A stretch of 64,000 nucleotides of DNA from an uncultured Chlamydiae bacterium (GTDB lineage Bacteria; Chlamydiota; Chlamydiia; Chlamydiales; JAJFMA01): positions 2,592,001 through 2,656,000 of the forward strand of contig CAVQMM010000001.1 in assembly GCA_963713615.1 (NCBI GenBank), written 5' to 3'. The notes under the pieces were generated by a model. That model did no database searches, was not told the DNA's origin, and saw nothing but the letters and a program-made list of their open reading frames with translations. Numbering within the stretch: position 1 is the stretch's first letter; the number at the start of each line of letters is the position of its first letter. Both the position numbers and the translations under genes were made by a program. Shown piece by piece: positions 8,725-55,819 of this stretch.

Positions 8725-8816
8725 AAAGCTTCACAAACGCTCTAGGCCTATTTTTCAATGCTTAAGGACCTCACAATCGTGTTGAATCGTTTTCTTTGTT
8801 TTGTAAATGTCCCTAG

Positions 8817-11361
8817 GAGGTAATTGCAAAATTATTTGAGCCTTTAAGGATAGATTCTTAGGAAAAAAGGTTACCTTTTTTTGTGAGAAGGCGATTCTGG
8901 AAAGCTCAAATGGCATGGCACTATCTAGTCTGGAAAGACAGGCTTTTCTCCCCTCCCAGGCCCGAAGGGTCGATATTGCAACAGGCCATGGCATCGCCAT
9001 GGTATATGCCAAAACGGTTTTAGCAGCCTGTAGGGCTGCCATAAAACGTCAGTATTCACACGCTATTTATACAAGCGCCTTATGGCAGCCCTACAGGCTG
9101 CGAAATCCCTTCCTGGCATATACCATGGCGATGCCATGGCCTGTTGCAATATCGACCCTTCGGGCCTGCGAAGGGAATGGCTCTCTCTTCACCGGCATCC
9201 GATTTTCAGGAAATTGACTTCGGAAAATCGGACTTCTGCAATTACCTCCTATGGACAACATGAACACTATGAGGTAATTGCAAAATTATTTGAGCCCTTA
9301 AGGATCGATTCTTAGGAAAAAAAGGTTACCTTTTTTTTGCGAGAAGGCGGTTCTGGAGAGCTCAGATGGCATGCCACTATCTCGTCTGGAAAGACAGGCT
9401 TTTCTCCCCTCCCAGGCCCGAAGGGTCGATATTGCAACAGGCCATGGCATCGCCATGGTATATGCCAAAACGGTTTTAGCAGCCTGTAGGGCTGCCATAA
9501 AACGTCAGTATTCACACGCTATTTATACAAGCGCCTTATGGCAGCCCTACAGGCTGCGAAATCCCTTCCTGGCATATACCATGGCGATGCCATGGCCTGT
9601 TGCAATATCGACCCTTCGGGCCTGGGAAGGGAATGGCTCTCTCTTCACCGGCATCCGATTTTCAGGAAATTGACTTCGGAAAATCGGACTTCTGCAATTA
9701 CCTCCTATGGACAACATCAACACTATGAGGTAATTGCAAAATTATTTGAGCCCTTAAGGATCGATTCTTAGGAAAAAAAGGTTACCTTTTTTTGTGAGAA
9801 GGCGACGCTATAAAGCTCAGATGGCATGCCACCATCTAGTCTGGAAAGACAGGCTTTTCTCCCCTCCCAGGCCCGAAGGGTCGATATTGCAACAGGCCAT
9901 GGCATCGCCATGGTATATGCCAAAACGGTTTTAGCAGCCTGTAGGGCTGCCATAAAACGTCAGTATTCACACGCTATTTATACAAGCGCCTTATGGCAGC
10001 CCTACAGGCTGCGAAATCCCTTCCTGGCATATACCATGGCGATGCCATGGCCTGTTGCAATATCGACCCTTCGGGCCTGGGAAGGGAATGGCTCTCTCTT
10101 CACCGGCATCCGATTTTCAGGAAATTGACTTCGGAAAATCGGACTTCTGCAATTACCTCCTATGGACAACATGGACACTATGAGGTAATTGCAAAATTAT
10201 TTGAGCCCTTAAGGATCGATTCTTAGGAAAAAAAGGTTACCTTTTTTTGTGAGAAGGCGACGCTATAAAGCTCAGATGGCATGCCACCATCTAGTCTGGA
10301 AAGACAGGCTTTTCTCCCCTCCCAGGCCCGAAGGGTCGATATTGCAACAGGCCATGGCATCGCCATGGTATATGCCAAAACGGTTTTAGCAGCCTGTAGG
10401 GCTGCCATAAAACGTCAGTATTCACACGCTATTTATACAAGCGCCTTATGGCAGCCCTACAGGCTGCGAAATCCCTTCCGGCCTGGGAAGGGAATGGCTC
10501 TCTCTTCACCGGCATCCGATTTTCAGGAAATTGACTTCGGAAAATCGGACTTCTGCAATTACCTCCTATGGACAACATGGACACTATGAGGTAATTGCAA
10601 AATTATTTGAGCCCTTAAGGATCGATTCTTAGGAAAAAAAGGTTACCCTCTTTTGTGAGAAGGCGACGCTATAAAGCTCAGATGGCATGCCACCATCTAG
10701 TCTGGAAAGACAGGCTTTTCTCCCCTCCCAGGCCCGAAGGGTCGATATTGCAACAGGCCATGGCATCGCCATGGTATATGCCAAAACGGTTTTAGCAGCC
10801 TGTAGGGCTGCCATAAAACGTCAGTATTCACACGCTATTTATACAAGCGCCTTATGGCAGCCCTACAGGCTGCGAAATCCCTTCCTGGCATATACCATGG
10901 CGATGCCATGGCCTGTTGCAATATCGACCCTTCGGGCCTGGGAAGGGAATGGCTCTCTCTTCACCGGCATCCGATTTTCAGGAAATTGACTTCGGAAAAT
11001 CGGACTTCTGCAATTACCTCCTATGGACAACATGGACACTATGAGGTAATTGCAAAATTATTTGAGCCCTTAAGGATCGATTCTTAGGAAAAAAGGTTAC
11101 CCTCTTTTGCGAGAAGGCGACGCTATAAAGCTCAGATGGCATGCCACCATCTAGTCTGGAAAGACAGGCTTTTCTCCCCTCCCAGGCCCGAAGGGTCGAT
11201 ATTGCAACAAGCCATGGCATCGCCATGGTATATGCCAAGACGGTTTTAGCAGCCTGTAGGGCTGCCATAAAACGTCAGTATTCACACGCTATTTATACAA
11301 GCGCCTTATGGCAGCCCTACAGGCTGCGAAACCCCTTCCTGGCATATACCATGGCGATGCC
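8817..11361. repeat. Tandem array of six TIR-bounded palindromic elements, ~455-bp period
   Basis: Units at 8817-9248, 9271-9704, 9727-10159, 10182-10565 (49-bp deletion), 10588-11020 and 11043-11361 (truncated). Complete units are bounded by GAGGTAATTGCA...TGCAATTACCTC and separated by a 22-bp linker CTATGGACAACAT(GG/GA/CA)ACACTAT. Confidence 0.97.
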
Positions 11362-11481
11362 ACATAGGCCTCAACCTAACAAGCCCTTTGGGCTTATGTT
11401 TCAATGCTTTAAGGCTTTCTAGGCAACTCAAAAGGTTGGCTGGCGCAATTTCCTATGTGGCGCAGTCATTCCATGACTGCG
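11362..11481. repeat. ACATAGGCCTCAACCTAAC-type element end followed by a GTGG-tagged REP hairpin
   Basis: Homologous to the reverse complement of 52700-52757; followed by GTGG-CGCAGTCA-ttcca-TGACTGCG at 11457-11481. Confidence 0.75.
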
Positions 11482-11546
11482 AACAATCCGTTGCAATTGA
11501 GTTACTTGGAAGCCCTCGGTGGTGGAGAAGATCGCAAACCCTCAGA

Positions 11547-12500
11547 TTATTCTCTTACCTTGCGCTCAAAGAAGGCCACTGTGGTGTAATCAGAGATATG
11601 CTGAACCGCCAGGGTCCATGAACCTTCTACAGGGATTTGTTCCCAGTTCCTACTTCGCTCCTCAAAGAAGGAACTCTCTGCCATAACATATAAATCTGCA
11701 CCCTCAGAAGTCTCCACTCCAGCATAAATTAAATAGTTACCCGCAAAACACTGGAGGGCTATGGTCGCTACAGGACCACATGCATGAGTTGGCTTTGGTG
11801 GCCAAGCGAGAAGCAAAACGTCTTTCGAATCAGCTCTTTGCAAATGCTCGACAAAGTCGTCTTCTGTAGTATGATCAAAAAAGCTCTCTTCTTTGCTATA
11901 TGCCCCTGCCTTCTCATAGCCCTGCACGTTAATTCCATTTTGCTCAAGAAAACAAGCCACATATCCACGTCCACAACCAACATCATGAACAACATTAGCG
12001 GAATCTTTGCTAACCTGAGGAAAAGTACTCAAAATTGCAACAGGAAGTCCTCTGCCAGGCTTAAACCAGGAATTTCCACCATAGCTACCAACCAACCTAG
12101 GAAGCTGCCCGCGTTGCTCTGCAGTAGGCTCGACTTCCGGATTTTTATTGATGTTTGGAAATAATAATCCTGCCATCAAGTCTTTATAATATGCAACCCG
12201 TTCGGTTTCTGGATTGGGCTTCATCCCTGGATGTTCTATGTTATATGGATAGATAGCATCCTTAAAAACCATATTGAGAACTTCATAGTTTAACGAATTC
12301 AATTTTCCATAAGTGTATAGTTCAAAAACCTGCTTTATTGCATTATTATAACAAATTTTTTCGCTGTCATTTAAAACGGTTTCGAGAATTTTTGCATAAA
12401 AAACCATTGCGTTCATAACGGATTTACGATTATGTTGTAAATCTCCAGTTCTTACATTTCCCGGAACAATTTCTATGTTATTAAAACCAAGTTCCATCAC
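11547..12500 (-). CDS. Hypothetical protein with a C-terminal SAM-dependent methyltransferase-like fold
   Basis: VHDVGCGRGY motif I, downstream acidic GYE, and VLLLAWPP motif. Confidence 0.6.
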   Translation of the reverse strand: MMELGFNNIEIVPGNVRTGDLQHNRKSVMNAMVFYAKILETVLNDSEKICYNNAIKQVFELYTYGKLNSLNYEVLNMVFKDAIYPYNIEHPGMKPNPETERVAYYKDLMAGLLFPNINKNPEVEPTAEQRGQLPRLVGSYGGNSWFKPGRGLPVAILSTFPQVSKDSANVVHDVGCGRGYVACFLEQNGINVQGYEKAGAYSKEESFFDHTTEDDFVEHLQRADSKDVLLLAWPPKPTHACGPVATIALQCFAGNYLIYAGVETSEGADLYVMAESSFFEERSRNWEQIPVEGSWTLAVQHISDYTTVAFFERKVRE

Positions 12501-12633
12501 AATCCCTTTTTAAACAGATTTATTGTTGTTTTTTGATGTTTATCATTATATAAAGTAGTAAATATGCATCAATTTAATTATAAAAGCAATAGAAACATGC
12601 CAACAAAAGAAGGTTACCTTCTGCGTAAATCAA

Positions 12634-54971: not shown

Positions 54972-55048
54972 ACTCTTTCTGACGGCGACAACCGGCCACA
55001 ACCAAGAATATGGCTTTGTGGTCGGTTTTAGATTTGTTTTTACTGGAA

Positions 55049-55366
55049 TCAACTTGGGGATAGCTTAAGGCCAATTATGCCGCACAGGATTAGTCCGAGG
55101 CAAATAATTCTTAAGGGATCTGCCGATTCTCCAAGATAAAGAATGCCAATAGCTGCGACCCCTACAGTACCAATGCCTACCCAGACGGCATAGGCAGTGC
55201 CCATGGGAATGTCTTTTAGAGCTGCTGAGAGGAAGAAAAATCCCACCGCCATAGCTGCAATGGTCATCAGGCTGGGGTAGAGCCTGGTAAAGCCTTCCGT
55301 GTATTTGAGGCCAACAGCCCACACGATTTCTAAAAGGCCAGCGATGAGCAAAAATATCCAAGCCAT
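55049..55366 (-). CDS. sugE: SMR family exporter SugE/Gdx
   Basis: [43 protein letters not shown]. Confidence 0.93.
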
Positions 55367-55467
55367 GATTTGTCCCTGCGGTTAAGGATTTGTTTATACA
55401 AATTAGCGACAATTTGCGGAATAAGCAAGCCGTTCACCTAAACCAAAAAACGGGCTATGGACGAGCT

Positions 55468-55774
55468 GAGGTAATTGCAAAAGTCTTTTGGGATGTCAGA
55501 TGGGCAATAAAGCCCTCACAATCGTATCTCGGCGCGCAGCGCTTTGGAGTGCGTGTCGCTCGCGACCGCTTTGGATTTGGGCGAGCCTCTTGTGCCACGT
55601 ACCGTTCTTTGAATGCTCAACCTCTCCCAGCATACCCGGAAAGGGCTTCACCTTTCGCAAATACCTCGTTCGCCCAAATCCAAAGCGGTCGCGAGCGACA
55701 CGCACTCCAAAGCGCTGAGCGCCGAGATACGATTGTGAGGGCTTTATTAGCTCAAAGACTTCTGCAATTACCTC
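55468..55774. mobile_element. GAGGTAATTGCA-TIR element carrying a GGAGTGCG REPIN
   Basis: Same 12-bp TIRs as the array units, but the interior is the 16994-type doublet. Confidence 0.88.
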
Positions 55775-55819
55775 AATTAGTCCAGCGCGTCCATCTAGTC
55801 TAAAAATACAGCGTTACCG

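Follow-up and report, generated by a model that had tools for sequence, protein, structure and literature searches.

A chlamydial miniature element in register with a GGAC repeat: a symmetric target motif and a probable IS1182-like transposase

What ends beside the GGAC repeat of this locus, what fixes its spacing, and which enzyme put it there? The locus is a 64,000-nucleotide stretch (hereafter the window; positions 2,592,001 to 2,656,000) of contig CAVQMM010000001.1 (C1) from an uncultured Chlamydiae bacterium (G000, 99.1% complete), in which copies of a short sequence, GAGGTAATTGCA, stand at a constant distance from the GGAC of a 9-bp repeat. We found that GAGGTAATTGCA is the end of a non-coding miniature transposable element with inverted repeats (MITE), and that its two kinds of junction form the two sides of a single symmetric target, GWC-N-[4 or 5 A/T-rich bases]-N-GWC (W, A or T). 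Movement of the MITE was probably in trans, through an IS1182-like DDE transposase that is predicted to read GWC half-sites flanking the A/T-rich core, a mode of reading that would bring each insertion to one phase of the GGAC repeat.

The element and the register of its ends

Among the 245 exact ends in G000, 87 lie beside GTCC-N4, read outward (N4 junctions), 79 lie beside GGAC-N5 (N5 junctions), 36 are one mismatch off either form and 43 match neither, compared with a register at 555 of 100,000 random positions. The preliminary description of the locus had named a lack of GGAC enrichment in a genome-wide flank logo as the result that would speak against it; enrichment proved strong (166/245 versus 0.56% at random). 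Within the window there are 15 exact copies of GAGGTAATTGCA and 17 one-mismatch sites, against a mean of 0.5 in shuffled sequence, and all 15 exact ends lie where that description had put them, with the adjoining letters it had given: CTAG at 8817, CTAT at 9248, 9704, 10159, 10565 and 11020, TAAG at 49858 and AACA at 52938 for the N4 type, and ACTAT at 10182, 10588 and 11043, GAGCT at 55468 and TAATT at 55774 for the N5 type, with GGAC degenerate at 9271 and 9727. Its statement that every end is in register thus describes 13 of the 15 ends in the window, but is too strong for the genome as a whole.

The ends fall into two types, and their pairs mostly make elements of about 430 bp (32 pairs) and about 750 bp (24 pairs). 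The core is a 211-bp copy; in the 432-bp form this is joined by a palindrome with about 80% likeness to those next to a gene of the Y1 type, or repetitive extragenic palindrome (REP)-associated tyrosine transposase (RAYT), at C1:3243412. In the 430 class, a copy and its nearest neighbour are 99.5% identical at the median, in part because of arrays. Open reading frames (ORFs) in the MITE run only through the palindromes and encode no transposase. Copies of 2.5-3.2 kb, which we considered as autonomous elements, hold unrelated nested insertion sequence (IS) genes or cargo and were rejected as such; the nested genes are presumably IS66-, IS110- or IS1634-like. The element thus has the features of a MITE: it is short and multi-copy, has terminal inverted repeats (TIRs) and a target-site duplication, lacks a transposase and shares its ends with autonomous ISs. 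The features of the window are as follows.

8809..8816, + strand: target half-site GTCC-CTAG, the first unit in the left arm of a palindromic GTCC/GGAC repeat
8817..9248: MITE unit 1, 432 bp, TIR GAGGTAATTGCA(A/G)AA at both ends, with a core of ~211 bp and a nested palindrome
9249..9270, + strand: array linker 1, CTAT and two 9-mers, the second with a degenerate GGAC
9271..11020: MITE units 2-5 (434, 433, 384 and 433 bp), each with CTAT on both sides
9403..9632: nested palindrome of unit 2 (every unit has one), ~80% similar to the repeats next to Y1/RAYT gene C1:3243412
9705-9726, 10160-10181 and 10566-10587: 22-bp linkers between MITE units 2-5
11021..11042, + strand: array linker 5, CTATGGACAACATGGACACTAT
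11043..11363, + strand: truncated sixth unit with a single end
25851..25928: empty target, a GGAC-9-mer arm, short loop and GTCC arm with no MITE
49768..49857: palindromic GGAC/GTCC 9-mer repeat of the AAAGGAC subfamily, its right arm interrupted by a MITE
49858..50069, + strand: truncated MITE copy with one end only, N4 junction GTCC-CTTA
52283..52938, - strand: truncated copy of the 752-bp type of MITE, followed by AACA-GGAC
55459..55467, + strand: target half-site GGAC-GAGCT
55468..55774: 307-bp MITE variant with both TIRs and N5/N5 flanks, no duplication
55775..55792, + strand: target half-site AATTA-GTCC and one more 9-mer unit

Positions 8817-11363 are therefore an array of six MITE units. 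Its 22-bp linkers consist of CTAT, GGACAACAT and GGACACTAT, in agreement with the earlier reading of them as two 9-mers plus a duplicated CTAT, and the first linker is present too in a contig from DNA run X2. In two places the preliminary description had to be amended, as the ends at 49858 and 52938 belong not to one element but to two separate truncated copies, and the 55468-55774 copy has no duplication. The copy at 52283..52938 is 99% identical to C1:664654-665405 across 657 bp, and the palindromes within the 307-bp copy are about 93% like those beside another Y1/RAYT gene, C1:3256780.

The surroundings of the MITE copies are rich in repeats of other kinds. Duplicated stretches about 78% alike lie at 50080-51300 and 53700-55000, between the truncated copies, and hold two paralogous ORFs of 204-215 amino acids that match no Pfam family. 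Elsewhere on C1 are three more tandem arrays of the MITE (476526-478848, 1173286-1175179 and 2273505-2277289), which share a 43-bp N4/N4 linker. An IS66-like element is nested in MITE copies repeatedly (C1:598665-601719, 938906-941960, 1312531-1315577, 2131917-2134971 and 1348953-1351869), apparently at the internal palindromes, and may have a preference of its own for those repeats. G000 as a whole has at least 60 distinct 16-mer groups with at least 40 occurrences, several repeat families nested in one another, and one element on the scale of 86 bp that interrupts transposase ORFs in frame.

The GGAC repeat and the MITE are independent. Three other genomes (G001, G003 and G004) have 55, 127 and 173 three-unit GGAC arrays, respectively, but no exact MITE end, and 132 of the 228 repeat clusters in G000 are empty of the MITE. 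The preliminary description had left room for GGAC being an invariant part of the element's end; these repeats without the end, the presence of the register at only 4/92 flanks of the same end outside the chlamydiae, the 223 distinct 14-nt flanks in G000 and its 47 duplicated targets exclude this. It had also spoken of a dispersed 9-mer minisatellite. Dispersed 9-mers there are, but instead of a plain minisatellite they form long palindromes tied to four-helix-bundle genes; the empty one at 25851..25928 is near-perfect, with a folding energy of -37.2 kcal/mol (z -13.9). Four-helix-bundle genes are linked with short repeats, which prompted us to look at those loci. GGAC arrays adjoin both four-helix-bundle (TIGR04258) genes of G000, C1:1850843 and 3217661, and at least two GGAC-N5 pairs were present at 18 of 24 TIGR04258 loci (two pairs of these loci being duplicates) versus 9.6% of random G000 windows. 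Across many related genomes (fetched loci L525-L548), GGAC 9-mer palindromes stand on both sides of TIGR04258 genes, as REPs flank RAYT genes; a mechanism for this association was not found in the literature searched.

A symmetric target motif

Read outward, the logo of the 245 ends has G at -8 (202 ends), A or T at -7 (215) and C at -6 (216). With up to two mismatches allowed in the end, GWC was found at -8..-6 in 239 of the 303 ends on C1, versus 2.5% of the positions taken as non-coding by a crude ORF mask. Since GWC reads the same on both strands, the target is symmetric, GWC-N-[core]-N-GWC, with N4 and N5 junctions as its two sides. When we analysed the 109 inward-facing end pairs less than 3.3 kb apart in G000, 47 had a duplication, of 4 bp in 43 pairs, the length that had been proposed, and of 5 bp in four. 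These 47 represent 45 distinct targets, of which 38 have a GWC at each side; all four combinations of orientation occur, and the targets include head-to-head and tail-to-tail forms, which are not tandem repeats. In all four 5-bp duplications there is one extra base between the GWC motifs. Among non-array N4/N5 pairs, 24/32 were duplicated versus 8% by random re-pairing.

The diversity of these sites bears on a hitch-hiking explanation, in which a few chance insertions in the GGAC repeat spread as composites and the register is a founder effect. Some loci were indeed duplicated along with their flanks (C1:309695, 656695 and 3645703), and the three other arrays amplify the MITE together with its linker. 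Against this, the flanks take 223 different forms and their last four bases 61, the duplicated pairs have 45 distinct targets, and elsewhere the same register occurs with unrelated interiors and, in genome G347, with copies in both orientations. Hitch-hiking is thus largely refuted already, and we regard it as a highly improbable origin of the register.

A comparison of filled with empty motif sites in non-coding DNA indicates which part of the target matters. Cores made up entirely of A/T occur in 28 of the 34 filled sites versus 279 of the 988 empty ones. Further 9-mer units are not enriched beside filled sites (24/34 versus 380/561 empty, p=0.85), and a preference for the tandem repeat itself was accordingly not supported. 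The proposal that the 9-mer is targeted is hence refined: the 9-mer is hit, but probably as a carrier of the symmetric motif GWC-N-[N4/5]-N-GWC, its tandem context not being enriched beyond that motif. What had been called a landing pad is probably a side effect of the way in which the motif is read, because the repeat supplies most of the tolerated motifs.

If, as predicted here, the enzyme reads two GWC half-sites with an A/T-rich core between them, each subunit would set the strand-transfer point one base from its own GWC. Half-sites 9 bp apart would then give a 4-bp duplication and those 10 bp apart a 5-bp duplication, and such a link between spacing and duplication length is expected if the subunits of a dimer each measure from their own half-site. 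The repeats would dominate the sites because roughly two in three of the motifs in non-coding DNA belong to them, insertions into genes presumably having been purged. The tandem arrays likely arise later, by unequal exchange between neighbouring copies.

A candidate transposase and its relatives

As had been noted, the enzyme is not in the window. Its family was reached through a decayed element with the same end and a DUF772 gene (locus L156), which led to transposases of about 365 amino acids. Across this wider family both ends were found in 45 of 80 loci, with the consensus GAGCCTCTTGCAAAA; a 4-bp duplication was present in 26 of the 45 pairs and GWC in none of 87 half-sites. Scans for two GGAC units followed by such an end returned 57 loci in genomes, most of them from chlamydiae, and 89 in metagenomes. 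The preliminary description had called for an autonomous copy with a transposase; none was found in G000, but an intact gene with the same end lies on the metagenome contig L464. This ORF, P0121 (374 amino acids), has a downstream end, GAGGTAATTGCAAAAGT, that abuts GGAC-ATTAA-GGAC-CTTAA; proteins P0122-P0133 are 72-95% identical to it. The identical 15-17 bp end borders DDE transposase genes at L464, L094, L190 and L156 and in genome G241.

P0121 matches DUF772 (PF05598) and DDE_Tnp_1 (PF01609) above the Pfam cut-offs and has the invariant triad D147/D269/E330. Its structural model (predicted local distance difference test score 92) has a Tn5-like fold (Z 17.4, root-mean-square deviation 4.7, 266 residues), and Foldseek returned no match at E<=0.001. 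The best curated model is IS1182 NF033551, at 60 bits against a cut-off of 270, and because of this low score we call the enzyme IS1182-like and not a member of IS1182. Plasmid homologues that are 40% identical carry the RefSeq name IS1182-like ISUnCu17, and an element at locus L549, with GAGCCTCTTGCAAAA ends and a TCCT duplication, gave a tblastn score identical to those of ISUnCu17-like records. Placed in this recognisable group, the system is a variant of known repeat-targeting ISs and not the undescribed system for which it had first been put forward as a candidate.

In a quick tree of 55 rows, thinned by similarity from 93 sequences, P0121 groups with the enzymes of G347 and G241 (Shimodaira-Hasegawa-like approximate likelihood ratio test, 100). 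The G347 clade-mate is 53% identical and belongs to a 1,462-bp element, all ten complete copies of which lie in GTCC[TTTCA]GGAC with a 5-bp duplication, five per orientation, beside 254 empty sites; an eleventh copy is cut by a contig end. This site fits the same GWC rule as the G000 target. When the pattern of the GGAC search was reversed as a control, it had 263 matches in this genome, on one strand. The KKRGRPKKGE stretch of the family, which we take to be AT-hook-like, is missing from the L464 clade, which has a predicted basic helix in its place, together with an extra helix at 297-313; we hypothesise that these clade-specific segments may take part in target reading.

Further searches outlined how the family is distributed. 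Family matches occur in 23 of 400 genomes of the order. PF05598 had matches in 300 related genomes, and the 30 such loci that were fetched all lacked this end; a scan of genome contigs with the single protein gave two loci in one genome, and viral contigs gave none. As other partners for the MITE, we considered ISAzo13 (PF07592), which had no match in G000, the control genomes being silent too, and the annotated DDE or multi-copy IS genes of G000, 18 of which were checked with a best end match of 5-8 mismatches, except for one IS1634-like gene that is nested in a MITE copy.

A further candidate is an HUH/RAYT enzyme, or an activity linked to the four-helix-bundle genes, that would move the element or build the adjoining repeats, since G000 has six Y1 genes and two for four-helix-bundle proteins, whereas a cognate DDE gene was not found there, and palindromes of RAYT type are nested within the MITE. 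The MITE end was, however, not seen in the inspected flanks of any of the six Y1 genes, whereas it borders the DDE genes listed above; clean duplications of 4-5 bp suit DDE chemistry, and the repeats occur without the end. We therefore consider this candidate very unlikely, and mobilisation in trans by an IS1182-like enzyme, as its shared ends suggest, likely.

The same end was also followed through other genomes. Among 100 genome-contig loci that carry it, GWC is in register at 8 of the 13 distinct flanks labelled chlamydial versus 4 of 92 others. In G002, where the interior is a different one of 166 bp, 19/23 flanks are in register and 5/5 complete pairs are duplicated, and in G327 the register is present at 11/15 flanks. 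Other members of the transposase family (L302, L303, L324 and L501) lie in further palindromes, CCCCGCCC-TTAA, CAGGC-TAAA, TAGCCCC-GCAT and GCCCC-GGTA, which suggests that repeat targeting arose more than once; L303, with a transposase of another clade, sits in the target that is used by the MITE of G066. In other phyla (L051-L150), a wide range of palindromic repeats lies between copies of the same end, the smallest a hairpin of about 38 bp (L101, L150), and several pairs there have duplications of 4-5 bp.

Several of our findings weigh against movement of the MITE by a GWC-reading enzyme of this group. The 43 of 245 exact ends outside both registers and the 62 of 109 pairs that lack a duplication are among them. 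No cognate transposase or homologue was found in G000, nor in 21 others of the 24 genomes searched together with it, and L464 is one case, a 1,430-bp contig with a single end at which a duplication is unreadable. The register was found at 0/14 flanks in G030, with no other fixed target evident, and at 0/5 in G066, where 4/5 distinct flanks lie in AGGC[TTTA]GCCT instead; in G241, ends starting GAGGTAATTGCA beside transposase pieces have GCCC(T)[TTCA]GGGC-like flanks in 3/4 cases, without GWC. The targets of G066, G241 and G347 are hairpin centres, so that structure could matter. The full GGAC may or may not be read in place of GWC, GGAC/GTCC being complete on both sides at 25/34 filled versus 331/561 empty sites (p=0.11). 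Four low-cover public sequencing runs gave no empty version of any filled site, a result that favours neither side; the best share was 0.18, and the contigs were too short and had no joint across the MITE.

A broader proposal would connect these enzymes. In it, a basic recognition helix took the place of the AT-hook-like stretch in the chlamydial clade, which became a set of retargetable repeat-seekers, each subunit reading a half-site, with either a 4/5-bp duplication in a linear repeat or, via mirror positions on the two arms, a one-step replacement of the centre of a palindromic one, and with sister enzymes on different host repeats (the four-helix-bundle 9-mers and three REP-like hairpins). 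We put this forward tentatively, as a possibility that is more doubtful than not.

Copies without a duplication, and known systems

Non-array pairs without a duplication are unequally divided, 17 being N5/N5 and 4 N4/N4 (p=0.007). At the four N5/N5 sites that were compared with relatives, picked for their conserved-looking neighbours, the flanks are collinear in at least one relative in 4/4 cases, with G001 rearranged at one. Long-range inversion is therefore disfavoured as the origin of such pairs, as it would give equal numbers of the two forms. At the first junction of the window, 52 bp that include the centre of the palindromic repeat are lacking, and are kept in a 92.6%-identical paralog, the DUF3485 gene region 14 kb upstream (window 7724-9150 versus L513 235-1716, C1 ~2585.5-2587.0 kb). 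The N4/N4 linkers of the three other arrays correspond to the reciprocal product. Copies without a duplication are thus likely to reflect a local loss of the palindromic repeat's centre, a pattern that fits one-step replacement of the IS1272 type, re-insertion nearby by an end already in place, or a pair of insertions with later recombination. At the paralogous locus, a MITE is cut off by an array resembling CRISPR, with 32-bp repeats and unique spacers.

These copies also speak for a structure-guided enzyme that, as in IS1272, attacks extruded hairpins or cruciforms of the GGAC palindromes, the phase following from geometry more than from base reading. Such a reading would accommodate the strong folding of the repeats, the excess of N5/N5 pairs with collinear flanks, the missing 52 bp and the fact that related enzymes strike hairpin centres; in other records, moreover, 13 of 27 complete pairs are N5/N5 without a duplication, 8 of these 13 with mirror-image last four bases, one end of each pair being N5 by the search pattern. 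In G000, however, mirror-image bases were found in 3/17 N5/N5 pairs, as by chance (2.6), the duplicated sites lie in the arms and not the loops, 10/34 have no further 9-mer unit beside them, and the tandem context is not enriched. The targets of IS1272 are also described as having no common sequence in the available parts of PMC5678879 and PMC4923244, whereas those here have GWC. We accordingly judge guidance by structure to be unlikely, and return to the reading of GWC half-sites by an IS1182-like enzyme for the comparison with known systems.

ISs of the ISUnCu17 type have one DUF772 and DDE transposase of about 370 amino acids in about 1.4-1.5 kb, a 4-bp duplication and ends of the form GAG-N4-TTGCA-(A/G)AA, in all of which they resemble the present system. 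In contrast to the wider family, in which GWC is absent (0/87), the L464 clade has fixed repeat targets, and it differs in its predicted basic helix where the family has KKRGRPKKGE and in its extra helix at 297-313.

REP-targeting ISs are a second point of comparison. The available part of PMC1525189 lists ISPsy8, IS1397 and ISKpn1 (IS3), ISRm22 (IS4) and ISPpu9, ISPpu10 and ISPa11 (IS110), with REP-targeting members in the IS3, IS110, IS4, IS256 and IS5 families; in these, as here, a dispersed host repeat is broken at one point with a short duplication, and hybrid flanks from recombination were reported too. Insertion at one fixed point was found in 10/10 G347 copies and, as GWC on both sides, in 38/45 G000 targets. 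The G000 system differs in its transposase family, in its target, a TIGR04258-linked tandem 9-mer and not a classical tagged REP hairpin, and in that the cut lies in the arms, the duplication length follows the half-site spacing and the mobile unit is a MITE.

IS1272, a member of the IS1182 family, replaces stem-loops without a common primary sequence and without a duplication, and some IS1182 members target palindromes according to a review cited in the same two papers (available parts of PMC5678879 and PMC4923244). Its enzyme is of a related type, and its insertion into palindromes with loss of the centre is similar to our N5/N5 and N4/N4 copies, but here there is a target consensus and 47/109 pairs are duplicated. 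REPINs with their RAYTs likewise form hundreds of short intergenic palindromic copies with tandem amplification; the outer element here, unlike them, shares its TIRs with DDE genes, the RAYT-type palindromes are mere passengers inside it, and its end was not seen beside any of the six G000 Y1 genes.

The available parts of a REP survey (PMC3733652) and of a MITE review (PMC10969869) contain no GGAC match and no IS1182 or chlamydial match, respectively. The literature that we searched, which leaned to open access and left ISfinder aside, so that a prior ISfinder entry is possible, has no description of the element, the clade or the target repeat. What is known is repeat targeting by ISs; what is new is the clade, the four-helix-bundle 9-mer as a target, the spacing-dependent duplication and the mixture of duplication with centre loss.

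Target choice is loose in most small DDE transposases, and the way in which a preference for host repeats arises in some has hardly been tested. The system also brings to light an unexplained family of repeats with a link to four-helix-bundle genes, and a compact enzyme with a target of about 12 bp could serve as a laboratory tool. The element may also unite ordinary duplication and IS1272-style replacement of the target's centre. An enzyme of 374 residues, close relatives with other fixed targets, relatives in which the motif is absent and two segments specific to the clade together make it testable how target choice arose in this family.

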